Shown: one piece after another, positions 4,646 to 61,664 of the stretch
How the letters are laid out: each line of letters begins with the position of its first letter
Position numbering within the stretch: the first letter of the stretch is position 1
From: Psammoneis japonica
Lineage: Eukaryota
Assembly: GCA_008632985.1 (NCBI GenBank)
Contig: QPGO01000119.1
Location: 1-64,000 of the forward strand
Length of the DNA: 64,000 bases
Direction: 5' to 3'
Made by a program: the position numbers and the translations under genes
Notes under the pieces: model-generated
Seen by the model: only the letters and a program-made list of their open reading frames with translations
The model's database searches: none
What the model was told of the DNA's origin: nothing

Positions 4646-4909
4646 AATCTGCATTCTGAAGGGCACGATTGAGTATGCTTCTCAAAATATTGGAGACCAG
4701 GTCTTTTCGGTCTATTTTTTTTGTTTTGTAAGAAGGCAAGAGATATGCACGATCTCTACTAGAGGCCTAATCGCAAGAGACGCGTTGCTTGGTCGTGTGT
4801 GTTGTTGATGGATCGTACATGGCTTCGGTGCATCGGGTCTTTCTCGAATTTCTTTGCGCGCGACGGTCTTTGTGACCTCCCGCAACCCACAACTTTTTTC
4901 ACACTGTCT

Positions 4910-17574: not shown

Positions 17575-17847
17575 GGTGGAAGGACTGGCGCATCGTTGCA
17601 AAATGCCTTCATCCCATGCATCATCTCTTGATCCGTCCCATGCACTTCCTTCCTCACACTGTTCGAAAGCGACAACCACGTGGTGGGAAAGAAAAACGCC
17701 ACCCACCCATGATGATGACGTCACGAAATGTCTTTGCCCGCCCGCCGACCGCGCCGACCGGCACCGCAGCGTCTCGGCCGCCGGCCCGCGAACTGCAAAG
17801 GGATGATCTATCTTGCAGAGAAGTGCGTTCCTTGCCATGGACAACTA

Positions 17848-18549
17848 ACTCTCCGACCACCAGAACCTCAAGTTGCTCATGCTGGTTCACATGAAGTCCA
17901 TTCTTGTGCACTGCAACTCCCCAAAGGACCAAAACTTCAGCTCAGCAAAGAGCCCCAGAGCTTCTGCAAAGAACTGCTGAAAAATGCTTGTTCTCTGCCC
18001 TTGTTCTCCAAAGCTGGAGTGCGGCAAAGGGCCCTCTTTCTTCTTGCACTTTTTTGCCCCCCTGGAACAAGCCAGAGTTGGGAGCAATGATTGCAGTGCC
18101 AGAAATGTTGCATCTCAAGAAGAAAATGATGCTGGCTGCCCCGCTGAGACCCTCGGCTGTTGAAAAAATGTGTGTGCACATGCAGCCCAGAGCAGCTGAG
18201 ATCTTTGAAAACACACAAGCATCAAACATTGCTCAGCAGGCACATGATGTTCAAGCATTGCAGTTGAGCCCATGACCGCCAGCCACACCAAAATTTCCAG
18301 CGCCGGCAGCCAGCTTTTTTGATCGCCTCTGGACAGCTTCCACTCCCAAAGCATCTTGTGCAGCAGAAATGTTCGCACAGGTGAGAGAATCAGTCAGAGT
18401 CAACTGAGGATGCAAGAAGATGCCATTCACCTTTCCACCACTGGGAATCACCACCTTGGAAGGCAATGTCTCGAAACAGCTGCTCACTCCATCGCGCGCC
18501 CAGCCACGCCGAGCGAACACTTTCTGTGCGAAACATTCCGTTGAATTCG
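17848..18549. other. ~700-bp TpA-free intergenic block (probable decayed repeat)
   Basis: No TA dinucleotide found by eye between 17848 and 18549; rich in TG/CA; no recognisable product. Confidence 0.65.
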
Positions 18550-27200: not shown

Positions 27201-30200
27201 AAACAAGCGTCTTGATCAGTTGATGAACCAAGAAAGTGTTTTTTCGCACACGATCACTGAAGTTGCTGTGCAACAGCGTGGAGTCTCCTGCGAGACACCG
27301 ATGGAGGATGGAAATCTGTGCTGCGAAGGTGGCACCGGAAGGCATGTCTCGGAGCTTTGGATGCATGATCCTGTGAGAAATAAAAAGAAATTGATGAAGG
27401 ACATCGTCAAAGGCTGTGCTGGTTTGTCTCCACGGCATTTGACACCAATGGACGGAATCTTGCATTTCACTGCTGATGATCACAAGAATGGAAGGGAGCT
27501 TTGGGTCCATGATCCCATGGGTGAAACAACAAAAATGGCAAAGGACATCTTTCCAGCCCATTGTGGTTCAAATCCACTGCATTTGACACCAATGCACGGA
27601 ATGTTGTGTTTCGTTGCAGATGATGGAGGGAATGGAAGGGAGCTTTGGGTCCATTGTTCCTGTGGGCAAAACAACGAAAATGGCAAAGGTTCCAGGCAGT
27701 CATGATTTGCATTTTCGGGATTTGACACCAATGGACAGAATGTTGTGTTTCAGTGATGATGACAAGCTTTGGGTCCATGACCCCATCAGTGACACGACGA
27801 AGGTGGTCAGTGATGTCAACGCAGGCCGTCATCATTGGGACCCACTGGATTTGACGCCTGTGAACGGAATGTCACATTTCTTTGCCAATGATGGAGAGAA
27901 TGGAGTGAGGCTTTGGGTCCATGATCCTGTCAGCAAAACGACTCAAATGGCAAAGGACATCAATCGTGGAAAGAAAAAATCATTGAGTCCATTGCTTTCT
28001 TCTTTGACACCATTGGATGGCATGTTGTGCTTCGCTGTGGACAACAAGCTTTGGATGCATGATCCTTTGAGCCAAACAATGGAAATGGCAGAGGGCATCA
28101 AGCGTGGAAAGAATCGTGATGCTGACCCATCTTTGTTGACAGCAGTTGATGAAAAGTTGCATTTCAAGGCCAAATGCGGAAAACAGGGGAAGACCTTTGC
28201 GCTTTGGATGCATGATCCAAAGAGCAAAACAACTGAAATTGTGAAATTGGGCGACGAGACATTTCGCGAGCCGAGGTGTTTGGTGCCCATGGATGGAAAT
28301 CTGCTCTTCTTCAACAAAGACACCGACAACAACCTTGCTGGGTGGTGGTTGCTGGAGTTGGAGGAGGCCCAGGTCCTCGCACTTTTGCTTGTGAACCAAT
28401 GATGTGGTGTTCTCGTTGGTTTTGTCCCTCTTTTTCTTTCGACTCTCCACAAGTGGAACGGCAAAGTGACACCACCAGGTGTGAAGGAACAGGCGACATG
28501 CTCTGCACCATGTTTGTGCTGCTGTGTCAAGGACCCGGCAGGTCCGAAATGCAATTGAGTCCATCAATGATCGGCTCTTGAACACCACAAAAATTGTGAC
28601 ATGGTCCTGCGGAAATGACAAGCACACGTGCCTCGTGGCGCTCTTTCAGAAGACATGATTGATGTGTTCTTGGAACAGGAGAATGTTTTCCAAGGGACTT
28701 TCTTGATGGATCACCAAATGAAAAGCTGGAAATGGCCAGGTCACTTGAGGAGAACAGTGACAACAAAAAGAGTGTGAGGAGGTCCAGTGTGCAAATTCAA
28801 CAAGCAACAGCCTCTCTGCACAATGCTTGTGCTGCAGTGTCAAAGACCTGGCAGGTCCAAAATGCAACTGCACTGATTGATGATCAGCTCTTGCACACAA
28901 ATGCTGGTTCTGCAGAAGTGGCAAGCATGTGAGCCTCATGTGACACAAGAAGCTCATCACTCTGTTTCTTTTCTTGACTTCATTTTAGGATTTCTGAAGC
29001 CAGCTTCTTCCTCTTCTCCATTTGCCCAATTGTCATCTTAGAAGCTGTCAACTCTTGTGAGTTGACAGATTTCCTTGCATGGAGCAGGTTCAAGTTTGCA
29101 GTCTTGCAGGTCTCCAACATGATCTGCACCATTCTGTGCCACATTGCAGAAATGCAGCATGCACCATGCATGTTTGACATGCGCCAATGCACAACTGCAG
29201 GTGTGTGTCTGTTTGAGCAATTTGGGGCAACATTTTCACTTGCAAACAGCATGTGCAACCCATGCTCTTGGGCTCTTTCTTAAAAAAAAAACAAACAAAC
29301 ATCAGAAGGAAATGCCTTTCGCCAACCCCTCCACCATGCCAAAATGACAGAACTGGATCAGTCTTCAAAGAAGAAAAAGCAGATGTTCAGACCCAAGTGT
29401 TTGTTCAGTGTTGGCTGACCAATGTGACTGCTGCTGTGGGAGCACTCTGTCATTGCCAAGCACACCTGCTGGAACTTTCTCCTGCACTCTCCCTTTGTCC
29501 TGATGCCATTGTGTTGCACCACAAAAAGTCATGAGCTGCTTTTGTTGTCAAATTGAAGAAGCCTGACAAAATTGGGAAGGAAAGAGAAAGCATGTTTGTG
29601 GCTAAAAGAGATGGAGGAGAGCAGCTTCACAGCTGTTGCATGGGAACATGTCATTTCAGAAATGGTGCCCCATTTGGCATTCTGCCCACCTGTGAACATG
29701 GTGTCATTGCATGCTGGCCTGACACACTGAGGTCAAATGAAGCCATGGAAGAACAAAGCAATCTCCTGTCTTTGGCACCAATCCTGGAACAAGGGAGCAC
29801 AGAAGATGCAGCAGACAAATCCCAGAGTCTGCCACCTGTGGAGACAGAGCATGTTGTCCCTTTGCAAGCAACGCCCCCCTCTTGTGAGATGCAGAATTCT
29901 TTTTTTCATCAAGTGAAGAGTCTGAGGATGACTTCCAGAAAAGAAAAATCTTGCATTCAGTGAAGCAAAAGGTTGCACAGAGAGATCATCAGCAGAATGT
30001 CTTGTGCTCTTGCTTTGTCATCTCACCAGCATTGCATGGAAGAGTTTTTTGAATGTGTCATGATCAACTGTGCTTCCTTTCCTGCTCTGAACAATTCGCA
30101 TGTTGTCTGCCTCCGGAGGGATCTGGGGCAAGGGGCAAAAGGCCCAGGCCTTCTTGGCTTTCAATGCCTCATGCAGCACTTCTTGTGTTGTCAAATTCTG

Positions 30201-32320
30201 TCACTGCAAGTGCACAGACTTGCCAAATGACATTGACAAAGCTGCCATCAGGTGTTGTGGGAAAGAGTTTTCACCAAGCACAAAAAGAAGGAGCATGGCC
30301 CATGGTGAGCTGTGTGTTCTCAGCACAGCAATGTTGTTTGCATCATGGAGCTCAGCTGCACCTTTGGTCTTGTCATGCCTTGCTTTGACCCAGTCCAATG
30401 CAACAAAGGAGTTGGCTTTCTGCCCAAGATTTGGTTGCCTCTGGCTGATTTTGAGAAAAAGTGTTGCACACATGAAACTGATGATGTTTGTTGGCACCAC
30501 GTGGGCATTCATGGTGAAGAGATTGCTTTTGTTGATGTGGGCGGGATCTCTGGAAGAACCTGAAGATGTGGAAGACAACACTGTGGAAGATCCATTTGAT
30601 GCTTGCATGAAAGAGAGTGCACATGATCACTAAAATTTTTACAACAACCCAGGAAAAAATCATTGTTTGCAATTGAGTGCAGCAGCATGGTGCCAGAGCA
30701 GTCAGATGCATGTTGTGTGGCAGAGCTGCAGCTGCAGCACAGTGTCACTCCATTTCAAGACTGCACTCAAAGAGGTTGCATCACAACTGTTGATTTGAAA
30801 AACTGGTGGTGGATTGTCCACAACACTGGTGCACAGGACATCATGTGCCTCGCTCAGTCTTTCTCACAGCCAGATGCCCCCCCCTCCCCCGGGGCATGGA
30901 CTGTGCCCGGTGCATTGTCAAATGCCTGCTCCAACTGGAAGATCCCCTGAAGGAGTGGAATTTTGTCCACTGTGTGTGGCTCAGGTCCAGGCTCCACCTG
31001 ATCTTTTACAGCACATTGTCACAGCTGTGCCGTGTGTGTCTCATGCTGCTGTTGCAGAGACTCATTGGAGCAGCCATGGGCAGGTGCTGTGCAGCTCAAC
31101 AGGAGATGACCAAGCAGGGGGAGAGAGAGATGAAGAAAGTGCACATGCCCCAAGAAACATGCCAAAAATGAACAACAAAGTGCAGTGCGACATTGAGTCT
31201 TGATGTCCTGTTTTGTCCTTTTCAGCCCACACTGGGTGCTGCATTTCAACAAGTGCTCTGAGCTTTCATGTGGATGCGCGGGAGTTGCTGTGATCTCAAC
31301 AGCATCCCATGGTGATGCAGCAGCAAGCATCTTCCTGTGTCATTCATTTGGAGACAACAGCCCACTTTGTCTTGCATTTTTTGTTGTCTCCCCTGCAGCA
31401 CTGGCATTTGCACATCTTGAGTGGAGTGCAAAGCTTCTCCAGTGCTGTTGGGTCATGTGATTGCAAGTGACAAACATCACCCAGCAAGCAAGTTGAGGCA
31501 ACAATGACTTGTTGGCAGCTCAAGAATTTCTCCTTTTGAGTCAGTGTCAAAACTGCTTTCACTTGCACAGAGCCAAGTGCTCTGAATGTTCTTGTGAACA
31601 ACCCCATCTTGGGAGGCAGCTGGAACAATTTGGAGCAACATCTTGGACCCAGCTCCTGTCAACAAATTGACTGCAGTGACTTGCAAGAGTTCACTCAAGC
31701 TGAGGCTACAGTTTTGAAGTGCAAGTTTTTGCAGCTGGCTGCAAGTTGCTTTTTTGCAGCCAGCAAGATGAAATTCCTTGAGTTGCTGCAAAACTGTCTC
31801 TGTCCAATTTTGGGGGACAACTGCTTGGCAAGGGAGGAGGGAAAGCAATCATGTGGAGCAAATGCCCAGCTCTTTTTTTTTTTCAAGTCTCTGGAGCTGG
31901 CTGCCCCAGCACACATTTTCACAGAGGACCCGCAATCAAAACAGGTGCAGCTTTCCATGCGCTCAAATTGACAAGCTGGCACAACAAGCCAATTTTGTGC
32001 AAAAGCTCAACCAAAGCAGGTCATCATTGCAAACATGTTTTTTGGCATTGGTGCAATTGTGGCGCCCCCTTGCTTCTTGCCCACAAGAAGAGAGACTCGA
32101 TTGTGGCCTGACAACCTCTGCTTTTTTTGACAACCCCACAGCTTGTGCCGCTGCAGTGAGAATCTGGATGGAACGATCGTCATCATCCATTTTTGTTGTT
32201 TGGGGAAGTGAAGAGTGTAGAAGCACCCATGGAGCCAGTGCATTTCCCGTGGGGTGTCACTTGCGGAGTTGCAAACGTGCGCCAGTGTAGTGTGTTCCCT
32301 TTTCTTGCCGTTTGCGAGCA
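24240..32320. other. ~8-kb TpA- and CpG-depleted block of decayed sequence
   Basis: Roughly 25 TA dinucleotides by eye in ~8 kb, versus dozens per kb in flanking genes. Dense Cys/His-rich spurious ORFs in all frames. Internal ~90-bp duplication (~28500-28590 vs ~28812-28900). Confidence 0.75.
27290..28402 (+). pseudogene. Decayed ELWxxDGT-like beta-propeller repeat protein
   Basis: About seven ~45-aa repeats of the form LTPMDG(I/M)L(H/C)FxADDxxNGRELWVHDPxxxTTKMAKDI across ORFs 27196-27705 and 27614-28402; frameshifted; the expected Tyr of LYF appears as His or Cys. Confidence 0.75.
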
Positions 32321-37950: not shown

Positions 37951-39933
37951 CTACTTGGAGCAAAGCGGAAGTGCATCTTTCTTCAGTTTCTTTGTCATGG
38001 CCCGGACCCCTCTTCGCGCTCTCGACACTGCTTTCTTGAATTCCTTGTCAGTTCGTTTCTCCTTGGCCCACGTTAACCATGTGGTTTCCATTTCATCAAG
38101 AAAACTCTCTTGTAGGACTCCCTGGCCTCTCATGCGCTTGATGAAATCTCGAAGGAGATTGATGGAGCAGGTACTTGCGACCCTGCCAATCGAGGTAAAG
38201 CGAGGATCCGTCATTTGTAGTTCTACAAGATACTTTGTTGCTTCCATGAGGCGAAAGAGAGAATGGACTGCTTGTCCACGGTTCGACATGATGCGCCTTG
38301 AGAATAAAATTTTGTCGTATGCGACTTTGTTTTTTCCATCTATTGTCGTAGTATCCGGATAATACTTCCTCAGCAAATTGTCAAGGCACGACGTGTAGGC
38401 ACAGTTAACCTTGTTTAACTTGGGCGGAAACGGATTCGTCTTTGCGCTGCTATCAAACTCGAAAATTCTAGAAACATATTGGTCATCACCAGAACGCATT
38501 ATCGCGAACTTTCCACGGTATGCTTTGATTCCTCCTTCGTGATTCTTGTCCGAGTCAAAATGAACCAAGTCCGCACCCTCCTGTATCCATTTAGAACGCA
38601 CGAGCTTGAACTTTTGAGCCACATCTTTGTTTTGGCTGACCTTACTGGCGAGCAGAAGATGAATACCATCGTCAGACAAGGTGACTTCTGTACCCGAACA
38701 GTATACTGAGTCGCCACATTCGTCGAGGATCCTAAGCGAACTTGTCTCTCGCCACGAAGATGCTTTCCAATCATAGATACGAATGTACTTCGGATCACTG
38801 CGGGCAGTGGGAGGGCCAATAGCCAATCGATTTCCGTCAGCTGACATGGACAAAAGCGTTCCATTGATCTTACTTCCTCTGCGAGTCCAAGAGGACGATT
38901 TCCTCTGGCGATAAACTTCAACCATTGAATTCGCCCAGTAGTCGGGAAACGGAGTATCCAGCCTCGTACTGACAACAACAGTTTCGCCGTTGCCGGACAT
39001 GCTTACTCCTTCTTGATGACCTTGGAGAAATCCAAGAGAATGACCAATGGATCCGATTTGCTTCCACAAACTTCCACTATTGTCATATATTTTCACATCT
39101 CTACTGTTAGCTATCATGATGCGACGCCCGTTGTCGGATAAAGACACGTCGATTCCCAATTTTTCATTCATACGTGTACCATTGAAGGTCGCAAGGACAT
39201 TCCACCATTGTCCGTTCCATTCGTGGATGTTGACGTACCCAAAGTTCGAACACGCGTCAAAGCAGTTGTAGTCATCATCTCCGTCATCGTCATCAAATCG
39301 CGGGTAACGATCATCGTCCTCGCACCTGCTGCATTCACTGCTTGCAAACGCATAGCCCGCGGCGAGACGCGATCCATCCGCAGAGACAGATTTACTGCTC
39401 CCGTCGAATCTACCATGGAAACCAAATCGAGACCCCAATTCTTCCCAGAACGGCGATATGCCAGAGGTTTCATCAAGGTAAAAGACTTGTTCAACGGCTT
39501 CATATAACCTCTGGCGCGAAACAAAAAAACGCTTTCCGTCTTTTGATAGTTCGCTTCGAGACCACTCAAAATCGAACTTTAAATCATCCCCCAGCTGTTT
39601 CCACTCTGGAGGGACGCCGAGATTCCTACCACGCTGATGTGATTCTTCGAGACGTTGATCAGACGTTTTTAGCTGGCGCATCACGTTGTTGGGTCCAGCA
39701 TGATGAGCTCCTGCATATCCGATTGCAGCATCGAGCTCACCATTTACGGCCTTCCACGGTTCATTCGTAAGAGCATCGTTACTCACATTTCCGTGACTCA
39801 AACGATTAGAAGCGATAGTAATGCCAATCATCACCAGCTGCGCGATGAGCATTGACCCAAGAACAAAAGATGCCACCAACGCTACGGGCGGTTGCAAGAG
39901 TTCTTGGCGACGCTTCTTTCCGATTCCGTACAT
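37951..39933 (-). CDS. Membrane-anchored beta-propeller-like repeat protein of unknown function
   Basis: 660-aa ORF with N-terminal TM helix and repeated VS(L/M)SxDGxRLAxG and WxQxG motifs. Confidence 0.65.
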   Translation of the reverse strand: MYGIGKKRRQELLQPPVALVASFVLGSMLIAQLVMIGITIASNRLSHGNVSNDALTNEPWKAVNGELDAAIGYAGAHHAGPNNVMRQLKTSDQRLEESHQRGRNLGVPPEWKQLGDDLKFDFEWSRSELSKDGKRFFVSRQRLYEAVEQVFYLDETSGISPFWEELGSRFGFHGRFDGSSKSVSADGSRLAAGYAFASSECSRCEDDDRYPRFDDDDGDDDYNCFDACSNFGYVNIHEWNGQWWNVLATFNGTRMNEKLGIDVSLSDNGRRIMIANSRDVKIYDNSGSLWKQIGSIGHSLGFLQGHQEGVSMSGNGETVVVSTRLDTPFPDYWANSMVEVYRQRKSSSWTRRGSKINGTLLSMSADGNRLAIGPPTARSDPKYIRIYDWKASSWRETSSLRILDECGDSVYCSGTEVTLSDDGIHLLLASKVSQNKDVAQKFKLVRSKWIQEGADLVHFDSDKNHEGGIKAYRGKFAIMRSGDDQYVSRIFEFDSSAKTNPFPPKLNKVNCAYTSCLDNLLRKYYPDTTTIDGKNKVAYDKILFSRRIMSNRGQAVHSLFRLMEATKYLVELQMTDPRFTSIGRVASTCSINLLRDFIKRMRGQGVLQESFLDEMETTWLTWAKEKRTDKEFKKAVSRARRGVRAMTKKLKKDALPLCSK

Positions 39934-40249
39934 TACGACACGTTTCTTGGTGCTATCAGCGCCGCTTTTTGGTCAACAATGCTAGAGAAGTGTTGCGGAC
40001 AGCAGGCGTAGAAGGTTATTGACATCAAACATCAAGTCATCAGTCATCAAGTCACCCCACATGATGATCTCGAACGAGAAGGGTTCTCATTTTTTTGAAA
40101 CAATTAAGCGGACGTTGAACAGACAGACAAGTACCGGTCGACGCGACGCGACGAGCAGGTAGTCAATGTTACAGTCATCTATCTCTACATAACATAGTCT
40201 CTACTCTACTAGAGTAGAGCTCTAGCTAGAGTAGCTACTCTCTACTCTA

Positions 40250-44096: not shown

Positions 44097-44361
44097 TGGT
44101 TCTTAAAATACCCAAGCCCGCTTTCTTGTTATTGCATATGTACAGTATCTCTAGAGACCTAGAGAGAACAAAGACAAACTTTGAACGCTACTTGCAGATA
44201 TTTTCAACGCAGCAAGCAGCCATCAGCCATCAGCAGCATCGCACCTTCGCATCGTCGATCGTCGATCGCTCTACCTGTACCAATCGCCCAAATCTGCGGA
44301 GGCCGTACGACGTACAGTCATTTTTTGTCAAAGTCATTTTGGACATTTTCCACTTCTTGCA

Positions 44362-44796
44362 TGTGCAGTGTGCCTCGCCACTGGACAACACGGCGAGACC
44401 GTGCATAAGCCTCTTGTACGTGGCAACGTAGTGTTGTTAACACGTACCTGGGAAGCACGACCACAGGAGGGCGTGGCTCTAGGTCTTAGGCAATTCCAGA
44501 AGGATGCTAAGAGAGCATCCGTGTGAAGCACACTGGCCCGTCGTCTGGCCCACCATGGCAGCATGATTCCACACGATGACATCACTCGTGCGCAGCGTGT
44601 GATGGCTTGACTCGCACGATCCACAATGCGAGCGCACGATCGATTTGATGCGATCCCAATGCGAACGAACAGGGATTTGGCAAGATTCCCCATTCACACG
44701 ATCCCATTTTCTCTGCTCCAAGCTGGCTCATGATTTTCACAACGACAAAGTTGCAACACATCTTCTTTTCAGCGCCTGGCACATGCACAGGGCACA
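44362..44796 (+). repeat. 5' LTR
   Basis: Ungapped alignment with 49152-49586; starts TGTG, ends CACA. Confidence 0.93.
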
Positions 44797-44855
44797 GTGA
44801 TGTCACTCTCGCATGTTGTGCGAGGTGACGAAATCTGTAGAAACGAAACTGCGAA

Positions 44856-46040
44856 ATGTTGGCAGGACCGACAAATCTTAAAACGACCATGAAGAAGCGG
44901 ACCGAGCCGCCGATTCCGTTCGCACGGCCGGAGAAGAAAGAGCTGCAGCAGGGCGAGTGCCAGACATTCAAGCTGCGCAACAACCCCACTGATCCGGATG
45001 GTCCAACGCACGAGATGGGCATTCCGCACCTTTCCATGGCTGCATGCGAGATGCTCCCAATCTTTCTGCGCAACGTGGGTCGCGTGCACGAAGGACAAAA
45101 CATCACGACCGGGCCAGCGAAATTTGCCCTCATGCGTGACCCACTGCAGGGTGATGCTCTGACGTCATTTGACAATGCCGTTGACAAGCAGGCATCCCAA
45201 ACCAATGCTGCGTGCGCAGCATGCGTCGCCAAGCTAAAGGAAAGCATCTTCCCACATGGGGCGGCACTGTTGCAGAAGCGTCATCTGAGGCGCTTCATGC
45301 GCAAGCCCGCAGAGGTTTCCACTCGTGACTGCGTCGCGAGGGCTGTTGAAATCAACGGCCACATCTCTCAGTTTCCACCCGTGATGGAGGACAAAGAAGC
45401 ACTGGCACTGTCACCTGATGACGAACTGTGCGACATGTTCGAGTGCGGTGTGCCGAGCGCATGGCAGAAGTTCATGACGCTACAGAATTTTGACCCGTTG
45501 GCGCATGCCATCGCCGAATTCACACAGTTCTGTGAGTGCACCGAGCAGGTCGAGCTTGCCGAAGGTAACCGCGACCAACGTGCTGGGGTCCCACGCAAGC
45601 GGGGACGTAGAACGGACAATTCTGAGTCGTTGATCACGACCCAACCGAACACCCACGTGAAACGTGTCAAGACTGGATGTTCCAACAACGGAGGCAGCAA
45701 GCCCAACACAAAACCTCGGAATGAGGAAGATGTTGACACTCTCATCGGATCGAAGGTCGAGGAGTTCTTTGCCAACGCTCAGAAAAAGCGTAAGGCACGC
45801 AAGGAGGAGCTCAATCACTTCCGCGACCTCAACTTAAGTGATTCCGAAGACTCGGACACTTGCCGACACGATGCAGGTAGTTTTAATACATTAGATGAAT
45901 GTATAAATGAACAACTGAATTACCATCGTACACGTGTTGTAGGCCAATCCCGCAAACGAGTTAAAAAGACTCATCTTACTCCAATCTTGTTTATAGCTAT
46001 GAATGCTAAACATGGCAAGGGGCAAGACTCAAACCATTAA
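44856..46040 (+). pseudogene. gag: gag-like ORF of the Gypsy element
   Basis: ORF directly after the 5' LTR with QKRHLRRFMRKP and retrotransposon gag-like composition; Tyr absent until ~45920. Confidence 0.7.
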
Positions 46041-49000
46041 GGCACTATTAGATAGTGGCGCCAGCAGCACTCTACTCGACAGTCGATACTGTAAACGTCT
46101 GCGAAGCCATTCAACGGCTGAGACAAACTGGACTACGGTAGCAGGCTCGTTCAGTACGTCTAACGACTGTACCGTTAAATTTTGGTTACCAGAATTATAC
46201 GAAACTCTTAGAACTTAAATATACCGTCCACGTACACAACGGAAAGTTGGGCAAGTACGATATGATTATTGGACGTGACATTCTGGAGACACAAGGCATT
46301 GATATTGTCTTCTCTAAACAGATGATAGAGTGGCCATTAGTCAATGGAGAAGTACCAATGAGGCACGTAGATGCTACGGTAGAAACCTCCTTCTATCTTC
46401 AAGATCCAGAAGCTTTAGCTTCGGAAACCGACCGGATTTCGCGTATTTTAGACGCTAAGTACGCGCCGGCCTGCCTCAAGGACATAACGCGAGGGGCAAT
46501 AAATTTTCTATAGTTCAACAAAACGACCTTTTGGCACTATTGAAACGCCATGAGTCCTTATTTGATGGGACATTAGGAGAATGGAAGGGAGAACCCTACC
46601 ATATCCAACTCAAGGAGGGTGTAGAACCATACCACGCTCGTCCGTATAAAGTACCTCGTGCGTACGAAGCTACGCTACGTAAAGAAGTAGAACGCCTAGT
46701 ACGTATCGGTGTTCTCAAACGCGTTAACCGATCCCAATGGGCAGCTCCATCATTTATCATACCGAAGAAAGATTTAACGGTACGCTTTATTAATGATTTC
46801 AGAGAGCTGAATAAACGGATCAAGCGATTGCCTTATCCGATTCCTCATGTCCAAGATATGCTGCTCAAGCTCGAAGGCTTTATGTGGGCTACATCGCTGG
46901 ATTTAAACATCGGCCATTGTCACATCCGATTGGACACTGATGGCAAGAAGCTCTGCACGCTCATCTTCCCGTGGGGCAAGTATGAGATGCAGGCATTGCC
47001 CATGGGATTGTGCAACTCGCCAGACATTTTCCAAGAACGCATGTCAGGCTCATTTGAAGATCTGTCGTTCGTTCGAACGTGCTCAGATGACCTTCTCGTT
47101 GTGACGAAAGGCACCCACGAAGATCACCTCAACAAACTTGAAGAAGTTTTGTTGAGGGTCCAGAAGGCAGGACTAAAAGTCAACGCAACTAAATCTCACT
47201 TCTGTCAAACCCAATTAGAACACTTGGGTTGTCTGGTTGACAGAGACGGGGTGCGACCAATGCCCAACAAAGTCGATGCCATTGAGCGAATCGCGATCCC
47301 AACCAACAAACGCGACCTGCGCTCATTTGTTGGCATGGTGAACTGCCACCGCGACACGTGGATTGGACATTCTGAAGTCTTGGCTCCGCCAACACGACTC
47401 ACAAGCGAGGCTGTCAAGTGGGAGTGGACATCCGTTGAAGACGAGGCATTCGAAGCCGTTGAACGGGTGACATCGGATGATATTTTGTTGTCACATCCTG
47501 ATTTTAACAAACCCTTTGAGATGCGCGCCGATGCCTCTAAATGTCAATTGGGAGCAGTTGCATCCCAAGACAATAAAACCTGTCACCTTTTGCAGCAGAA
47601 AGCTTGACAGTGCGCAATTAAATCATGCAACAACGGAGAGAGAATCACTCGCCATTGTGGAGACATTGAAAGAATTTCGAACGACTCTCCTTGGTCATCG
47701 CACAACTGCATGCACTGATCATAAAAATCTTGCGCACAAAGTGTTCAATGCCGAGCGCGTTGTGCGCTGGCGGTTGACATGCGAAGAATGCGGTCCCGAA
47801 TTACGCTGTGTCAAGGGTGCCCACAACCTGGTCGCTGACGCTCTCAGTCGCCTTCGACTGGCACCCAGCTTGCCTTCCGAGGCCAATCCGGATGCAACAG
47901 ACACTCCATTGAGTCGTCCTTTGCATGAAGCTTTTAATGCAGATGCGCAAGATGAGATGTCTCTGCCCATTGGCTTCAAGCGCATTCAAAAAGCACAACA
48001 AAAGGACAAGCGCCTGCTCTCACGAGCCAAGGACTCGTCCGACTGCTCCATTCGCGCATGTCGTGGGGGAGGGTCATCACGACAGTTAATCTGTCATAAG
48101 GACAAAATCGCAGTGCCACAGTCATTGCAGGTTCCGCCATCTGAATGGTGCCACGAGACACTGTGTCATCCATGTGAGACACGCACGGAAATGTCCATTG
48201 CCCAGCACTTCTGTTGGCCCAGTGTGAGGTCTACGGTGCATTCTACGTGTGTTGAGTGCGATCGATGCCAGAAGACAAAACGCCGAATGCAGCATTGTGG
48301 GAAGCCACCAGAAAAGGTCGCAGAGACAATTCCATGGGAGACTCCATGCATGGATGTGACAGGGCCACATAAAATTCAAAGACGCGGAAAGGACACTTTG
48401 CAATTGTGGGCAGTCACAATGATTGACCCAGCAACCGGGTGGTTCGAGATTAAAGAAGTGTCTGCGAAACGCGCAGACGTCGCAGCAAACGTCGTGGAAC
48501 AAACGTGGCTATGCAGACATCCGTGGCCAACCCAGGTGGTTTGTGACCGTGGGACAGAATTTATGGCAGAATTCAGCCAGATGATTAAAAATGACTGTGG
48601 GATTTTGAAGAAACCCACAAGCAAACGGAATCCACAGGCGAGTGCCACAGTGGAGCGTGTGCACCAGACACTTGGTGACATGGTGCGTTCCTTTTCAGCA
48701 CAGGATGTGGAGCTGGACGAAGATGACCCATGGAGTGGCATCCTCTCCGCAGCAGCCTTTGCCACCAGAGCTGCGGCACATGCGACCACGCGTGCAAGTC
48801 CCATGCAATTGGTCTTCGGACACGATGCGGTTTTGTCTGTTGCTCATCGTGCCAAGTGGAAGCACATGGAAACCAGAAAGCAGAAGCTTGTCCACTTAAA
48901 CAACAAGCGTGAAAATCAGAAACGCAAGGAGTGTCAACATGCCGCAGGGCAATTGGCACTCATCAAACAGGAACAATCCTCTAAATGCGGTTCTGACAGT

Positions 49001-49115
49001 TGTGCAGGACCCGCCAGAGTTGTCCGTGTGCATGACAACGGCACGTTGCGCATCCAGAATGGAGTGCTGACAGATGCGTGCAATCTACGGCAGATTGTGC
49101 CCCATCACCAGCAAG
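46003..49115 (+). pseudogene. pol: pol (protease, RT, RNase H, integrase), frameshifted and hypermutated
   Basis: LLDSGAS protease; SQWAAPSFIIPKK, DFRELNK, LPMGL and CSDD (YxDD position) in RT; ADAS and TDHKNL in RNase H; HxxxxH...CxxC, DRGTEF and ERVH in integrase. Confidence 0.9.
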
Positions 49116-49151
49116 ACATCCTGTCACTTGACGGCCCTGATCATGGGGGAG

Positions 49152-49586
49152 TGTGCAGCATGCCTTGCCACTGGACAACATGGCGAGACTGTGCATGAGC
49201 CTCTTGTGCGTGGCAACGCAGCATTGTCAACACGCACCTGGGAAGCACGACCACAGGAGGGCGTGGCTCCAGGTCTCAGGCAATTCCAGAAGGATGCTGA
49301 GAGAGCATCCGTGTGAAGCACACTGGCCCATCGTCTGGCCCACGATGGCAGCGTGATTCCACACGATGACATCACTCGTGCGCAGCGTGTGATGGCTTGA
49401 TTCGCATGATCCATGATGCGAACGCACGATCGATTTGATGCGATCCCAATGTGAACGAATGGGGATTTGGCAAGATTCCCTGTTCACATGATCCCATTTT
49501 CTCTGGTCTAAACTAGCTCACAATTTTCACAACGACAAAGTCGCAACACATCTTCTTTTCAATGCCTGGCACATGCATGGGGCACA
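49152..49586 (+). repeat. 3' LTR
   Basis: Follows the PPT at 49145-49151; aligns to 44362-44796. Confidence 0.93.
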
Positions 49587-49739
49587 TGTGTCACCTTGAT
49601 CAAATTCATTTTTCCATCTCACAAAATCGATCTTTGAGATCACCTCTGCAGCTGCAGCCATGACTTCTCCATGGAGAACACACACATCAACAACTGTTGC
49701 ATTGAAATCTTGGGCAACCACTCTCTTTCCTGTGGAGAC

Positions 49740-52040
49740 TCTGGCAAAGCCCTGGTGCATCTTCTTGTTCCAGTTCCCCCATCATGGCCCAAACGCTTCT
49801 TCGAGCTCTTGACACAGCTTTCTTGAATTCATTGTCAGCTCTTTTCTCTTTGACCCATTCCAGCTGTGTGGTTTCAATTTCATCAAGAAAAATCTCGTCA
49901 AGGGATGATTTGCCAATCAGGTGCTTGATGAGATCTCGCAGGAGGCAGATTGATGGGGTGGAGCAGGTGGTGTGTTTGCAACCCTGCCAACTGCGGCAAA
50001 GCTGGCACTGGTCTTTTGCAGCTCTGCAAAATGCTTTGTTGCTTCCATGAGGTGAAAGAGAGAATGGACTGCTCATCCATGGTTTGACATGATGTGCCCA
50101 GAGAACAAAAAATCTTGTCGCGCGCAACTTTGTTTTCTGCATCCAGTGTCAGAGCATCTGCAAAATGCTTCATCAGCAAGTTGCCAAGGCATGACATGTG
50201 TGCACAATTGACCTTGTGCAACTTGGACAGAAACAGGTTTGTCTCAGTGCTGCTGTCAAACTCAAAAATTCTAAAAACATGGGGACCATCACCAGAGGAG
50301 TGCGTGCTTGCAAATTTTTCATCATGGCAGGCTTTGATTTCTCCAGTTCAGTTCATCAAGTTGGCACCCTCCTGCACCCAATTAGAACCCACAAGCTTGA
50401 GCTTCTGAGCAACACATTTCAGTTTGCCAACCCTGCTTGCAAGCAAAAGATGAGTGCCGTCGTCAGACATGGTGACTTGCACATCACAGTGACCCCAGTC
50501 TTTTCATTTGTCGAGAATCCAAAGTGAGCTTGTCTCTTGCCACGATGATGCTTTCCAATCATAGATGCAAATGTGCTTCAGATCACTGCAGGTGGTGGGA
50601 GGGCCAACAGCCAACCAATTTCCATGAACTGACATGGCCAACAGTGTGCTCCGTTGATCTTGCAGCCTCTGCAAGTCCAAGACAACTGCTTCCTCTCTGC
50701 ATGGCGACAAACTTCAACCTTGAAATTCTCCCAGCATTGAGATGACAGAGCATGCAGTCTTTTGCTGAGAGCAACAGCTTTGCTGTTTCCAGACATGCTT
50801 CTTCTGTTTGCACACCTGCTTGCACAGAACATGAGAGAACAACCAACAGATCTGGTTGGCTCCAACAAACTTCCAATGTTGTCACACATTTTTGCATGCT
50901 TGTTGGCATCTGTCAGTGTGATCCGATGGCCATTGTGTGACAAGGACACTTGGCTTCCCATTTCTTTCCCTGCATGAGGACCAACAAAGTCCCAGCGACA
51001 TTTCGCTTTTGTTCACTCTGCTCTGACTCCACTCATGAATTTTGTCCAGCCCAAACAAGTCAAGACATTGGTGGGCACACACGCAGTCATTGTGCTGAAA
51101 CTTGCAAAACCCATCTTTGCAAATGGCATCGTCATCATCATCATCATCATCATCAAAATCACAGTCATTGTTGTCTCACATGCTGCAGTCACTGTTGGTC
51201 TTTGGATGGCCCATGGCAAGATGCAATGCCCATCTGGTGCTGCCCACACGGGTTCATGCCTCTCATTGCAAGCATCGCACATGCCACCAAATTGCCCCCC
51301 CATTCCTTTCCAGAGTGGCTTTTTGCCAGATCTCTCATGGAGTTCAAAAGTGCATTTGCTGGTCTTGCATTCGTTGAGGCCACTGTCAGCATGGCAGGCA
51401 GTCCTGACGGAACCAAAAATGCTTCCCGTCTTTTGAGACATGGCTCAACTGCAAGACTTTTTCATGTGCGCACTCTAAAGTTTCCCCAAGCTGTTTCCAC
51501 TCGCAGGGGATGCCCAGATTGCCACCATGACGCAGGTGCTCTTGGGCACAATGACCAGATGTTTTCAGCCTCTGCATGTTGTTTCGTCTCATGTCATCAC
51601 AGGCTGCTCCTGGATGCCTGATGGAAGCTTTAAATCCACCAGCCATCGCCGACCTTTGATTGTTCATTCTTCGTCCGAGCTCCTTTGGAACCATTGCCCG
51701 TCTTTGAATGAGACCAAGAGACAGTGATGGCAACCATTCCCAACTGTGCTGGTGACATCGAACCCAGGACAATGGAAGCCAAAGCTGCTGGTCATGCTGC
51801 TTGTCGTGGACGCTTGTTTCCGACTCCGGGCATGCTCCACTTCGATTTGCTTTCTTGGTGCCGTCAGGCATTTGCTGAAGTGAAACAGTGGCACAGGATT
51901 CACCAATGAGAGAGGAGTGTTATGATGACAGGTCTGGTTGACAACAAGAGCCAAGAGAAGCTCCGTTTCCTTGTGTTTGATCTCTGATCTCGAAAATGAT
52001 GAACACGGGAGGGTTCTCATTTTTTGAAACATTTAGCGCG
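49740..52040 (-). pseudogene. Hypermutated paralog of the 37951-39933 gene, including its upstream flank
   Basis: Collinear similarity, e.g. 50012-50098 vs 38211-38297, and GGGTTCTCATTTTTTGAAAC at ~52011 vs ~40081. Reading frame broken; about 6 TA in 2.3 kb. Confidence 0.88.
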
Positions 52041-52245
52041 GGATAAAGAGTATTGGGATCTGAATACAATTGATACAAAAAAGAGTAATGACGTCATTCG
52101 CATCCACGCGGAAAAAATGGATGAATGAAACTTGCCACCGACTGACCCGACTGATGACTCACCGCCATTGCTCATCATCGTGTTGTGCGTTGTCTCGTTG
52201 CTCGTTGGAAACCGCAACTCATTACACTAACAACAGTAAAGAACC

Positions 52246-53009
52246 ATGTTTCGTTTCGGAGCTATTGGAGTATGCGCCATTATCATGGCTCTTTCTTGCG
52301 CTGACGCCTACATGGTGGGAACGTCCGTGTCGGCCTTTGGAGGTCGCGTTCTCTTGACGCCTCCTCCTGCTGTCTCCAAGAAAAATTTGCTTGAAATGAA
52401 AAAGGGAAAACCAAACATGCCTCCTCAAATGCGGGGTAACTACAAACGTCAGAAGGAAATGGCACAAATGCGTGAACAAATGATTGCGGCTGGCAAACCT
52501 GGCGCAGATGGATTGCCGATCTTCAATCTGTTCGTAAGAACGCCGGTGGGAAATGTAAGTTGAAGTGGGTGTACGATCCTTCAGCGTGTTGCTCGTGTAT
52601 TAGAGTGAGGCACAGAGTCGGAATCGCGTTGTTCCTTTTGATCAGCTCACATTTTTCTTTGCTCACTTTAATTTTTTTCCTTTTACAGGTGTGGTACCCA
52701 TGCGGCAGTTTCAAGGGCGATGACAAGAGTGCTGCATTGGCAAAGAACTATGCAGACGATGGCATGCTGAGTGGTATTTCGAAAAAGCAACTCGACAGTG
52801 GAGTGGAAGGATCCTTGTACCGAGACTTGGCCCAACTAAAGGAAAGTATTTTCCGCTCGTATCCGCAGCTTCGAAAGCAAAAGGACAAGCTCGAGTTTGG
52901 ATACAAGCTCGGATTCGAGGGCTTGTCAGAAGAACAAGAAAAGATGCAAATCATTGAACCCAAGGAGCAGAAGGGCCTTTTCGATGGAGTCAAGAGCATG
53001 TTCAGCTAA
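52246..53009 (+). CDS. HHL1-like plastid-targeted protein; exons 52246-52554 and 52689-53009
   Basis: Bipartite-like leader (SCADA-Y); FNLFVRT...WYPCGSFKG...LYRD...YPQLRK...EFGYKL resembles the HHL1 family; in-frame GT-AG intron. Confidence 0.7.
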
Positions 53010-59551: not shown

Positions 59552-59924
59552 GTTGGAAGTATCACCTGTGCACGAAATGGTTGCAAGTGTTGGTGTCGTT
59601 TGGAGAAAACGACACAAAAAAGGACAAAGTGTTTGTGTTGTTGCGTTGTTTGCCGTTTGACTTTTGTTCGAGAACACGAAAAAATATAACGGTCGTGGAG
59701 TCGTGATGCGCGCTCGCGTTGAATCGCGCGACTCGATTTCACAAGACATTGTGACGTCATGGGCCAACGGAAAATCCAACCAAAACCAAAGATGGACAGT
59801 ATTTATCGCAGATCAAAATCGTCCGATAATGACCAAGACATCGACACATGTCTCGGTCATTTCATTATACGAATACATCACGACCACACCATTGTTTCAC
59901 ATGGTTGGGTCGCATTTATTTTGG

Positions 59925-61664
59925 CGCCAAAGTCTTTTTTGCATGTGTGGCTGCGCGTGGTCGCCAGCAGATGAAGTGGCTGCTGGAATCTGTGTCATGT
60001 CTTTGCTGTGGACTGATGCATTTTCTCATCATGTTTTGGCAGTGTGGCAGCTCCTGCTTTTCAGCAGGGGGTGCTGGAACAACAGCAAGTTGCCAGCATG
60101 ATCTCTGGTGTGGTTGACTCTTCTTTCTTTTGTGCCTTTGCCCAGGGGGCAGGAGCCAAATTTTCAAACTCTGGATGTCATTGTTTTTGCAGATGTTTTT
60201 AGCCAATGCAGCAAAACAGCTGTGTGGTGACAAACAGCTCAACTGGAAAAGTTTGCCGCTGCATTTTTGTGGAAAGGAGCAGCAGTGCACAGCTTCTTGT
60301 GGCAAGTGTCCAAAGCCAAGGTGTGGGAGGCAAGAGCAGCCACAGCAAAAGACTGCCACTGCACATGTCTTCAAGTGCCAGCTGACAGACTTGTTGAAGG
60401 GTGCAATGCTGGGGGTGCATGTTGCTGGGGCCCAACAAGCAACTCAACAAAAAATTCGAACCAAGAGCAGCGCTTTTTGGACACGCCAGAGCTGCGGAAG
60501 CAGCAGCTTGGCAAAATTTTGGCAGGGGGGCGCTGCTGCACAAGCTTTTCAGTGCTCAAAGCAGTGCTCCTGCTGTCCCATGCTTGGCAGGCAGTGCAGC
60601 GCAATTGATCTTGGGAAGCTTGCTCTGTGGAAGCTTTTGAAGCTCTTGAGCCCCACGAAGCTCTTGAGCCAAGAAGCTGCAAATCTCGTTTCCCACAATG
60701 TGGCTTTGACTGGCTGCAACGTGGGCCAGCATGGGTGGCCAAGCCCCATTTTGATTGCTTCAAGAAGGTGCCTGCAGCCCATGAAGCCACAAGAGCTGGG
60801 TGTTGCCAAATGTGCTGCACGCGGCACTGGCATTGCTTGTTCTTGCAAAGCAGCGCCAAATCACCCAGCAGCACTTGCTTTTTCATTTCTTTTGATGCCA
60901 ACACACAAGCACAGGTGCACACTCCTGCTGTGCAGTGCATCAACACAGCAGCAGGTCAAATTGTCACACGCATGGGCAAAAAGCTGGAGGCGCCGCAAGT
61001 GGCACAACAAAGGTCAGCTTGCGCAATGGCAGCACATGATGCTTCCAGCAGATCGGAGTTGGTGGCATGCTGCACAAGAAATGCCATTGCATGGTTGTTG
61101 TGCAGTGTTGCACAGCAGATCTTGGAAACCTTTTTAGCTGTTTTCAAAGCTTTTGAGTTGGGCAGCACGGCTGAGCCAAGTTGCAAATTTTGCTGCCTGT
61201 GCAGCAGCTTTTGGTTGGTGGCAGCAGTCAGTTGGCTCTTGGCTCTGGCAAGGCCAGGTTTTTTGTTGCTCAGTTGTTTCAAGAAGGTGCACAGCTCACA
61301 AGGCTGCATGTGGCATTTTTGTTTTTTGTTGCAGAGCAAAACCTCAAATCACACAGGAGCTTGGTGCTTTTTCATTGCTTTTGACGAGGACATCAAAAAA
61401 CACACCAGCAGGTGGTGCACCCACTGTGCAGTCAGGGGCACAGCAAGGGGGGGGGGGGGGGGGGCGGAGTGGCTCAGCCTCCCCAGTCTTCATGAAAACC
61501 CACCAGCCCACGAGCCACACGAGCTCTACAAAACCTTTCACAAGGACATTGCAGCGGTCTCTCTCTCTCTTTTGCCACACTGCTGGCTGTGCTGACATGC
61601 ACGCAGCGTGTGTCACACGTGCACCTGTTTCATTGTTTTTGATGAGTGGCACTGTCAATGCATG
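59925..61664. other. ~1.7-kb TpA- and CpG-depleted block (probable decayed repeat)
   Basis: About 3 TA by eye (60200, 61135, 61527); internal similarity ~60840-60900 vs ~61328-61390; no recognisable product. Confidence 0.65.

Follow-up and report, generated by a model that had tools for sequence, protein, structure and literature searches.

Gypsy element and duplicated host-type gene

The stretch of DNA analysed here, called the window throughout, comprises 64 kb from a diatom, as homology of its host genes bears out, and contains a Ty3/Gypsy LTR retrotransposon (44362-49586) that is inserted beside a duplicated host-type gene, the copies of which we call ORF A and pseudogene B (Table 1). The LTRs are direct repeats of 435 bp each with TG...CA ends and are identical in 395 of 435 alignment columns. 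Pfam finds RVT_1, RT_RNaseH_2, RT_RNaseH, Integrase_H2C2, and rve in this order, i.e., RT - RNase H - integrase. The flanks of the element read TGCA on the left and TGTG on the right and would match if the ancestral 4-mer had been TGTA or TGCG, which is conjecture.

Table 1. Coordinates of the Gypsy element's parts, the paralog pair, and the TA-poor tracts in the window
Feature	Position	Strand	Description
T1	5042..6802		TA-poor tract, rho TA 0.06; within inverted repeats 4907-5028 / 6897-7018; weak DDE_3 hint
T2	17503..18549		TA-poor tract, 2 TA in 1047 bp; flanked by a divergent pair of host genes
T3	24284..32217		TA-poor tract, 23 TA in 7934 bp; rho TA 0.04, rho CG 0.28, TG+CA 1.75
ORF A	37954..39972	-	673 aa; intact, TA-normal paralog of pseudogene B; unmutated reference
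5' LTR	44362..44796	+	435 bp; 8 TA kept in the first ~147 bp, remainder TA-free
T4	44509..45790		TA-poor tract, 6 TA in 1282 bp; rho TA 0.09; CpG normal (rho 1.03)
gag-like ORF	44841..46040	+	399 aa; without Pfam match; mostly within T4
Unmutated island	45791..46904		90 TA in 1114 bp (80.8 per kb); protease-like region and start of RT
RT / RNase H ORF	46459..47607	+	RVT_1 match crosses the tract boundary; CSDD site
T5	46905..51920		TA-poor tract, 31 TA in 5016 bp; rho TA 0.10, TG+CA rho 1.66
Tyr-free ORF	47477..49198	+	573 aa; RNase H plus zinc finger and core of the integrase
3' LTR	49152..49586	+	Lacks 8 TA and 8 CG kept by the 5' LTR; keeps 2 TA that the 5' LTR lost
Pseudogene B	49744..51851	-	Full-length, frame-shifted, hypermutated paralog of ORF A
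T6	59918..61526		TA-poor tract, 2 TA in 1609 bp; rho CG 0.25, TG+CA 1.83

TA-poor tracts in the window

TA is under-represented throughout the window (rho ~0.55-0.6 outside the tracts; background density 0.0395 per bp), but six sharp-edged tracts totalling 18.65 kb of the 64 kb are depleted much further, with 3.75 TA/kb vs 40.5 TA/kb outside and TA-free runs of up to 1605 bp. A preliminary description of this DNA had placed the effect in Pol, where it is indeed found; the hypermutation exceeds both Pol and the element itself, as T5 spans from the middle of the RT through the 3' LTR and over all of pseudogene B, which is not a transposon. The sequences hit are the Gypsy element, a possible DDE transposon relic, the host-type pseudogene, and T2, T3, and T6, which are without Pfam identity: Among 126 tract ORFs of at least 75 aa, searched at E values up to 0.05, Pfam gave nothing usable except the DDE_3 hint in T1 (E 0.0012, below the cut-off). 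Older tracts have lost CpG as well, to TG/CA, whereas the young Gypsy tract has kept 54.7 CG/kb with ~87% of its TA gone.

An island of 1.1 kb inside the element and the first 147 bp of the 5' LTR are untouched, for which a simple domain model does not account; both may be later gene-conversion patches. On its right side, the island ends within ~10 bp, with TA retained at 46904 and Tyr codons altered at 46915 and 46918.

Loss of conserved tyrosines in Pol

The ORF with the RNase H and integrase domains (Pfam: RT_RNaseH, Integrase_H2C2, and rve, with RVT_1 in the preceding ORF) consists of 573 open codons plus a stop and encodes 30 Cys and 28 His, and the earlier report that it lacks any Tyr while the frame stays open was confirmed (0 Tyr in 573 aa). 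By comparison, its relatives (n = 120) have a median Tyr content of 4.1% (minimum 2.44%), with 1.4% Cys and 2.8% His. The preliminary description had derived a direction of mutation, TA to TG or CA, from ten altered motifs, all of which we found where it had placed them. Its 14 proposed Tyr positions held up with one exception: In 13 of them, Tyr is the commonest residue (61-100% among 177-240 aligned relatives), and the remaining one, the HFCWP column, is occupied by W (33%), T (32%), and Y (20%) in relatives. The RT catalytic site reads CSDD (47080-47091); all relatives (100%) have Y in the first column, followed by I (87%) or L (13%). The proposed ancestral motif YLDD is thus a minority state among relatives, but it is the state that yields TCA via one TA to CA step.

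Conserved columns were compared with 240 relatives of 43-59% identity that have the same domains as the window's Pol. No intact copy from the same species was found in the protein collection, the best identity being 56% among proteins of near length and 59% among longer ones. Downstream of 46905, 28 conserved Tyr columns read Cys (TGY) in 14 cases, His (CAY) in 10, Tyr in 1, and other residues in 3, so that 24 of 28 are single-step changes to Cys or His as the proposed direction demands; for the 21 Tyr columns with at least 80% conservation, the counts are 10 His, 9 Cys, 1 Tyr, and 1 Met. More generally, 75 of 347 columns with at least 80% conservation differ from relatives in the tract vs 5 of 103 in the TA-rich sequence that precedes it, and 42 of these 75 are explained by single steps, 22 from TA to TG and 20 from TA to CA. 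Sites identified in this way are non-synonymous changes only, with the present neighbouring bases taken as proxy for the ancestral ones. None of the relatives is poor in Tyr, and His occurs as a minority residue in a few columns; at position 47711, where the window has Cys, it is found in 25% of relatives. Apart from such minority His, the sequences compared gave neither of the results that would have spoken against the proposed direction, namely intact relatives with the same Cys and His residues or Tyr losses that single TA steps leave unexplained (only 3 of the 28 Tyr columns having other residues).

LTR and paralog comparisons

The LTRs of one element are identical upon insertion, so the differences between them postdate it. 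Their alignment of 435 columns has no indels and comprises 33 events: 7 doubles in which one LTR reads TG where the other reads CA, 10 TA losses (8 of them in the 3' LTR), 10 CG losses, 4 other transitions, and 2 transversions. The LTRs consequently differ at 17 TA-type sites, and the 5' LTR retains TA at sites that read TG or CA in the 3' LTR.

The second comparison within the window is that of pseudogene B with ORF A, which encodes a repeat-rich host-type protein without a match in Pfam or PDB, the only homologues found being of repeat type. Of 46 TA in ORF A, 3 are kept in pseudogene B, 18 read TG, and 17 read CA (43 of 46 lost), with the double outcome CG at only 1 site; not a single site has TA in B and TG or CA in A, which makes the asymmetry 35:0. 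TA density falls from 36.7 TA/kb in ORF A to 2.1 TA/kb in pseudogene B. CpG has been eroded in the same copy: 8 of 67 CG in ORF A are kept, while 22 have become TG and 20 CA (42 of 67 to TG/CA). The summed contig depth of pseudogene B is 54-125 compared to 61.7 in unique flanks, and a host-type sequence at near single-copy depth means that targeting of selfish DNA is an incomplete rule. That ORF A was spared speaks against a RIP-like mechanism in which homology triggers the targeting.

The TA to TG/CA direction is thus upheld by protein columns and, independently, by two DNA comparisons within the window, and this evidence as a whole bears out the predicted missense changes (Tyr to Cys/His, Ile to Val/Thr, and Leu to Pro/Ser) with frames left open. 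Inactivation by missense, as had been suggested, is true insofar as catalytic motifs are destroyed, but it is not the sole lesion: This Gypsy copy is also broken by frame changes, of which there are three or more (near 46200, 46500, and 47575). Besides these frameshifts, the earlier account missed the CpG loss in older tracts, the spread over the 3' LTR into pseudogene B, the recurrence in five other tracts, and the action at the DNA level, after insertion and on both strands.

Read-derived contigs from one study (run X1) gave a further view of these sequences, although such contigs provide neither copy number nor rare variants, and X1 may be the assembly's own sample, so that it is not independent support. 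Only runs of this study were listed as containing the stretch, and none of them was an RNA run. They match the window with 0 differences at 49532-51117 and 1 difference at 51172-52500. Compared with this copy of the element, other copies in X1 show transitions at 407 places and transversions at 24, and TA is found in several of them at a minimum of four places where this copy has CA or TG (45686, 45707, 45732, and 45737, among 40 of 435 differences listed). In metagenomes, 1 of 79 Gypsy loci carries the same signature, with 1 TA in 1000 bp and Cys or His at 7 of 8 Tyr columns.

Strand and sequence context of the changes

TG and CA outcomes occur at ratios of 32:25 and 18:17 (the latter in the A/B pair), and they are intermixed without strand-coordinated clusters in a runs test (21 runs vs 18.5 expected). 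Since both outcomes are equally frequent and intermixed, both strands must have been hit. The changed A is preferentially the one before C: Where TAC is present on one strand only, this was the case at 33 of 41 sites (p = 1e-4), with agreement between subsets (16:2 and 17:6). Correspondingly, residual TAs in the tracts are in TAC/GTA context in 18 of 70 cases vs 966 of 1837 outside (p = 8e-6). No other positional preference was found at -4 to -2, +2, or +3 around the changed A (44 sites), and a +2 G was likewise absent. This 3' C preference is a new observation and is without power to separate adenine from thymine chemistry.

Proposed process and alternative explanations

We interpret these data as post-insertional, both-strand, TpA-specific hypermutation of DNA in tracts, a reading to which we assign a probability of roughly 0.9. 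The Gypsy element inserted first and then, within sharply bounded tracts, TpA was changed to TpG or CpA at the DNA level by an A:T to G:C transition at either A:T pair of the palindromic TA step, with the A in 5'-TAC-3' (5'-GTA-3' on the other strand) being favoured and with near saturation (~90% of TAs lost). A site is no longer a target after one pair has changed, and the near absence of CG among the 46 sites of the A/B pair supports such one-hit targets. As the process cannot create TAA or TAG stops and removes existing ones, frames stay open even though Cys or His takes the place of Tyr and catalytic motifs are lost. The tracts may represent silenced, cytosine-methylated chromatin, given that older ones also lost CpG to TG/CA; this link to cytosine methylation is only correlative because CpG is close to normal in T4 and in the Gypsy part of T5, and it rests on the older tracts.

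A closely similar process was recently described for the chlorarachniophyte Bigelowiella natans, where TpA-only A/T>G/C hypermutation was seen in mutation-accumulation lines and integrated viral DNA, with some of the lines, but not all, having a de novo rate ~1000-fold over background (Mettrop et al., bioRxiv 10.64898/2026.01.13.699255, April 2026). In that species, A:T>G:C changes are regional and confined to TpA, giving TpG or CpA by strand; the long-term footprint is clustered TpA depletion with a gain of CpA and TpG; and a single-copy region is hit, so that repeats are not required. All of this resembles the window, in which transitions are likewise confined to TpA with both outcomes (35 of 46 sites, 0 in reverse) and lie in discrete genomic regions, the six tracts. 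TpA-poor coding sequences of B. natans are enriched for reverse transcriptase and DDE domains, and the authors propose an ADAT2-like adenine deaminase, the enzyme not being proven. The two cases differ in the host (a diatom, i.e., a stramenopile, vs a rhizarian), in the main target (an LTR retrotransposon and a host-type pseudogene vs giant-virus and virophage inserts), in the degree of depletion (rho TA 0.02-0.10, near saturation, vs 0.45 in the B. natans NCLDV region), and in the type of evidence (a historical footprint vs a measured rate). CpG loss accompanies TpA loss here, whereas the term "CpG" has 0 matches in the available preprint text, which also contains no mention of a 3' C preference. 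By this analogy, the process in the window is probably a genome-defence-like hypermutation of the kind reported for B. natans.

Given the rest of this reading, deamination of adenine to hypoxanthine in 5'-TA(C) context is our preferred guess at the chemistry, at slightly short of an even chance. The same tracts could also arise by thymine chemistry, in which T in 5'-(G)TA is oxidised or modified by a TET/JBP-like enzyme to a base of the 5-hydroxymethyl- or 5-formyl-uracil type that mispairs with G and gives T>C. TA being palindromic, TA>TG is TA>CA on the opposite strand, so the attacked base is indistinguishable and the 3' C preference can just as well be read from the side of the changed T, as one for a 5' G; moreover, dinoflagellate DNA contains hydroxymethyluracil preferentially at TpA. 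Against this, the sole paper on the signature proposes an adenine deaminase, though likewise without proof, and we regard thymine chemistry as unlikely. A different question is whether the patchwork within the element is a later mosaic, i.e., whether 45791-46904 and the first part of the 5' LTR regained their TAs from an unmutated copy through gene conversion or recombination. The abrupt right edge of the island fits such an event, as do its TA content, which is that of an unmutated element, and its few deviating conserved columns (5 of 103); many donor copies are also probable, with a summed contig depth at 80% likeness of 200-590x the flanks from 5737 pieces, although depth is not copy number. 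The left edge, however, looks gradual, with kept TAs at 45791 and 45835 among changed sites at 45812 and 45873 (where some copies have TA), the island has frame changes and stops of its own so that the donor was not intact or decayed later, and two separate conversion patches would be required. A mosaic origin is on balance doubtful.

The remaining explanations would do without a tract process on DNA. ADAR favours a 5' U, and retroelement RNA is a classic substrate, so that A-to-I RNA editing fixed by reverse transcription before insertion would fit TA>TG; but it predicts sense-strand A>G only, whereas TA>CA is as common as TA>TG (20:22, 25:32, and 17:18), the two LTRs differ at these sites, and the tract enters a pseudogene that was never reverse-transcribed with the element. 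We consider this explanation extremely improbable. Hardly better are the odds of a sequencing or polishing artefact by which a long-read base-caller mis-called modified bases in silenced DNA (A as G and C as T), even if two modifications in the same chromatin would explain both depleted dinucleotides and no platform is recorded for either the assembly or run X1: X1 contigs (k-mer depth ~61-72, pieces of up to 315 kb) match with 0-1 differences, which noisy long reads would not, the signature recurs on an unrelated metagenome contig, the measurements in B. natans were based on Illumina reads, and 50:50 TG/CA outcomes that differ between LTRs resemble fixed mutations rather than a systematic mis-call. 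Finally, the window-wide scarcity of TA could suggest that no special process is needed beyond ordinary neutral decay, or beyond a selection against TA and CG like that in RNA viruses and cytoplasmic mRNAs. Depletion in the tracts is tenfold further and has sharp edges, however, the changes destroy catalytic residues and were thus not selected, their direction is totally asymmetric (35:0), and all but 6 of the 33 LTR events fall on TA or CG sites, all of which makes such an origin most improbable.

Relation to known hypermutation systems

The known form of targeted hypermutation in selfish DNA is C-to-T editing, by RIP in fungi and APOBEC in animals. RIP, in Neurospora and other fungi, changes C>T at CpA and so generates TpA and stop codons; it depends on a duplication, both copies of which are mutated. 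Like the process described here, it causes dinucleotide-specific transitions at the DNA level after insertion, in tracts in which transposons are inactivated and from which it can spill over into adjacent sequence, but its chemistry and direction are opposite, as TpA is destroyed in the window and frames are left open. We rejected fungal RIP as a candidate because TpA is lost and not gained and because only pseudogene B is mutated while ORF A is not. ADAR and APOBEC of animals work before integration, on a single strand of RNA or cDNA, and give one transition type; they resemble our case in that clustered deaminase-type transitions inactivate selfish elements and differ from it in that the window shows both strands of integrated DNA hit and LTRs that diverge. 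RNA hyper-editing of the ADAR type via retrotransposition was rejected in view of a TG:CA ratio of ~1:1 and the 17 TA-type sites that distinguish the LTRs. CpG decay of methylated transposons by deamination of 5-methylcytosine is similar in that changes of the CG>TG/CA type are seen in the same tracts, but it leaves TpA untouched and is much slower here than the TpA process.

Within the literature searched, a programmed A:T-to-G:C process at TpA is the subject of one report, the 2026 preprint on a rhizarian alga, and searches for the signature in diatoms, with subscription journals outside their scope, found nothing. A diatom in which the signature is saturating, post-insertional, and present on both strands suggests either an old process shared across SAR or repeated evolution, and it offers a second system for the enzyme hunt, with the TAC preference as a criterion by which any candidate enzyme must be judged. 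Work on base editing would also have an interest in a natural DNA adenine editor. For genome annotation, the tracts keep long frames open in all six phases, and the resulting Tyr-free, Cys/His-rich "proteins" will be called genes and mislead the annotation of diatom genomes and metagenomes.

As a more speculative extension that we consider unlikely but arguable, diatoms and chlorarachniophytes may share a dedicated genome defence that is the chemical mirror of fungal RIP. A TadA/ADAT-derived DNA adenine deaminase with an anticodon-loop-like 5'-T-A-C preference would be sent to silenced chromatin and erase every TpA, so that transposons, integrated viruses, and silenced duplicates would succumb to missense changes with their frames still open. 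If true, this would be the first natural, programmed A-to-G DNA editor in eukaryotes, and it would probably be widespread in SAR algae and shape their genomic TpA deficit.

Hypermutation of TpA in sharply bounded tracts

The DNA has undergone post-insertional, TpA-specific A:T>G:C hypermutation on both strands, confined to six sharply bounded TA-poor tracts (T1 to T6 in window order) that together comprise 18.65 kb of the window and contain 3.75 TA/kb vs 40.5 TA/kb outside. At a background density of 0.0395 TA per bp, their longest TA-free runs extend up to 1605 bp. At 46905 the switch spans no more than ~10 bp: the TA at 46904 is kept while the Tyr codons at 46915 and 46918 are changed. T5 runs from the middle of the reverse transcriptase (RT) region of a Ty3/Gypsy LTR retrotransposon, where the finding sits, through its 3' LTR and all of B, a full-length but frame-shifted copy of the intact gene ORF A, and stops ~70-180 bp from the 5' end of B.

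Coordinates of tracts, element parts and repeats
Feature	Position	Remarks
T1	5042-6802	TA-poor tract
Inverted repeat around T1	4907-5028 / 6897-7018	~125 bp, 82% identical
T2	17503-18549	TA-poor tract, 1 kb, 2 TA
T3	24284-32217	TA-poor tract, 8 kb, 23 TA, 126 CG (rho 0.28)
Repeats within T3	around 27351-27960	imperfect, spaced 144 bp
T4	44509-45790	TA-poor tract
T5	46905-51920	TA-poor tract
T6	59918-61526	TA-poor and CG-poor tract
5' LTR	44362-44796	435 bp, ends TG...CA
3' LTR	49152-49586	435 bp, ends TG...CA
gag-like ORF	44841-46040	between the LTRs
Protease-like stretch		between the LTRs, visible by alignment to relatives only
RT/RNase H ORF	46459-47607	RVT_1, E 3.6e-19
RNase H/integrase ORF	47471-49198	RT_RNaseH, Integrase_H2C2, rve; Tyr-free count over 47477-49198
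ORF A	37954-39972 (-)	673 aa
B, pseudogene copy of ORF A	51851 to 49744 (-)	within T5
Direct repeat	63110-63244 / 63396-63532	137 bp, 98.5% identity, 286 bp apart, TA-normal DNA

The reading frame changes at least three times along the Gypsy copy (near 46200, 46500 and 47575). Its left and right 4-base flanks read TGCA (44358-44361) and TGTG (49587-49590), which, as a conjecture, would trace to a single target-site duplication TGTA or TGCG via both types of mutation (at TA and at CG).

Loss of tyrosine from the Gypsy Pol

The stretch 47477-49198 codes for 30 Cys and 28 His but not a single Tyr in its 573 codons. In 120 Pol relatives the median shares are 4.1% for Tyr (never under 2.44%), 1.4% for Cys and 2.8% for His; no Tyr-poor protein was found among these first 120 relatives checked. 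When 240 relatives were aligned onto the window DNA, at least 60% agreed on Tyr in 28 columns downstream of 46905; the window has Cys at 14 of these, His at 10, and Tyr, Met, Phe and Ala at 1 each. The preliminary description had proposed that TA to TG/CA changes inactivated this Pol by missense mutation, and both its observation and its inference are correct, albeit for a phenomenon that is bigger than it recognized. All 10 motifs that it listed are in place, and at 13 of its 14 proposed Tyr positions Tyr is indeed the commonest residue of the relatives; the exception is the HFCWP column (W 33%, T 32%, Y 20%). At the catalytic CSDD, the relatives show Y in 100% of cases at the first column, followed by I (87%) or L (13%).

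Direction and timing of the changes

Among columns conserved at 80% or more, 75 of the 347 that lie in the tract differ from the relatives, vs 5 of 103 in the TA-rich stretch of the element (45900-46904). The 75 comprise 22 TA>TG, 20 TA>CA, 4 CG>CA, 7 other A:T>G:C, 13 transversions and 9 multi-step changes. The LTR pair differs by 33 events over 435 columns without any indel: 10 TA losses (8 in the 3' LTR, 2 in the 5' LTR), 10 CG losses (8 and 2), 4 other transitions, 2 transversions, and 7 sites where TG in one LTR faces CA in its partner, showing that the two were hit independently. Since LTRs are identical at integration, these changes post-date insertion.

Self-comparison of the window matched the TA-normal stretch 37960-39164 within ORF A to 49744-50966 in B at 72% identity. 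Among the 46 TA of A, B has kept 3 and changed 18 to TG, 17 to CA and 1 to CG; the 67 CG of A were kept at 8 sites and became TG at 22 and CA at 20, while other dinucleotides were kept at 45-79%. No site in this alignment has TA in B opposite TG or CA in A. TA became TG as often as CA (22:20, 32:25 and 18:17), with the two outcomes intermixed (21 runs vs 18.5 expected), and this balance without strand runs rules out both editing of a single RNA strand and transcription-coupled asymmetry.

Preference for a 3' C and loss of CpG

Every TA step offers two candidate adenines, one per strand, and a site was taken as informative if C follows one but not the other. The adenine preceding C was the changed one in 33 of 41 such sites (p 1e-4), with agreement between DNA pairs (16:2), which are few at 45 sites but free of the bias of the protein set, and protein-inferred sites (17:6), which cover non-synonymous changes only and use present-day neighbours. 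In DNA pairs G at +1 was disfavoured (3:12), and no positional bias was seen elsewhere from -4 to +3 around the changed A (44 sites). This preference agrees with the scarcity of TAC/GTA contexts among TAs surviving in tracts (18 of 70, compared with 966 of 1837 outside; p 8e-6). The bacterial tRNA adenosine deaminase TadA acts in a U-A-C context of the anticodon loop.

CpG is retained in the young Gypsy tracts (rho 1.03; 54.7 CG/kb) but mostly gone from B, T3 and T6 (18 CG/kb; rho 0.25-0.28), so TA loss is the faster process. The loss of CpG fits ordinary decay of methylated cytosines in the same, presumably silenced, DNA.

Untouched and affected sequences across the window

Within the Gypsy element, 45791-46904 (80.8 TA/kb) and the first 147 bp of the 5' LTR are untouched. 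The former island could be a later conversion patch or a real gap in targeting, and we slightly favor a gap given that the island's left edge appears gradual.

T1 contains an ORF (5670-5981, +) with a DDE_3 match below threshold (E 0.0012) and may, with the inverted repeats around it as its termini, represent a DNA transposon that has been hypermutated. T2 separates the divergent host genes for an ABC1 kinase and an ABCG transporter, overlaps an unconserved N-terminal extension of ORF 14653-17844, and could represent a short relic inserted into a promoter region that they share. Pfam searches with ORFs of at least 75 aa from T3 gave no credible match. In T6, two frames (339 and 328 aa) stay open and overlap on the same strand; long spurious ORFs appear after TA loss because TGA is the sole remaining stop.

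Host genes elsewhere in the window (ABC1 kinase/beta-lactamase fusion, ABCG transporter, signal peptide peptidase, family-3 GPCR, sulfotransferase and HHL1-like protein) occupy TA-normal DNA. Among matches with a species name, the top relatives of the ABC1 kinase come from the diatoms Amphora coffeaeformis (63%), Asterionellopsis (55%), Corethron (55%) and Pseudo-nitzschia (50%), and the top match without a name stands at 79%; this marks the host as a diatom. The ORF A protein combines a hydrophobic N-terminal segment, an acidic run and repeated S-x-D/N-G-x-x-L/I units; it had no match in Pfam or PDB, and its 2938 relatives (E <=0.001) all align to the repeat region 240-470. It thus looks like an uncharacterised family of repeat proteins with a dead paralog, B, 10 kb away.

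Other copies and a second organism

Contigs from reads of a public run, which may be the assembly's own sample and has no recorded platform, match 49532-51117 exactly and 51172-52500 with 1 difference (k-mer depth 61-72). Across the Gypsy element, 5737 contig pieces align at 80% likeness or more, and their summed depth of 200-590x that of the flanks (not a copy number) suggests a large family. Other copies differ from the window copy at 407 transition and 24 transversion places, and at no fewer than 4 of 33 places examined, taken from 40 listed out of 435 differences, other copies carry TA where the window copy has CA or TG: 45686 (58%), 45707 (57%), 45732 (81%) and 45737 (68%).

Among 79 metagenome loci coding for relatives of this Pol, one shares the signature: L076, 1000 bp with a single TA (rho TA 0.02, CG 0.24, TG+CA 2.15), encodes a Gypsy integrase fragment with Cys or His in 7 of 8 consensus-Tyr columns, as well as CG-type Arg>Cys/His changes. 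Both parts of the signature, at TA and at CG, are present on this unrelated contig from a different environmental organism. In the remaining 78 loci, the median rho TA is 0.8 and TA-free runs always stay below 250 bp.

Mechanism and known systems

We favor a mechanism in which adenines at 5'-TA(C) would be deaminated in silenced chromatin, with thymine-side chemistry as the main open rival. The process resembles RIP in mirror image, yet it lacks the features that define RIP: its changes run the other way, and of the two paralogs B was hit and ORF A spared. Nor is it RNA editing.

A full-text literature search found the signature in a single paper (Mettrop et al.) and a diatom-directed one did not find it, with most subscription journals outside the scope of both. 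According to the available parts of that preprint, the same kind of process acts in the rhizarian alga Bigelowiella natans: in mutation-accumulation lines, two integrated viral regions take 231 of 302 nuclear mutations, nearly all of them A>G or T>C and the GC-biased ones all at TpA, at ~1000x the background rate and in some lines only (bioRxiv 10.64898/2026.01.13.699255). TpA-poor, CpA+TpG-rich windows form 124 clusters in its genome, reverse transcriptase and DDE domains are enriched in TpA-poor CDS, and the authors suggest an ADAT2-like DNA adenine deaminase as the candidate enzyme; the words "diatom", "stramenopile" and "CpG" do not occur in those parts of the text (bioRxiv 10.64898/2026.01.13.699255). 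Here, the host is a diatom, and its process is near saturation, is accompanied by CpG decay and shows a preference for TAC that is a new detail.
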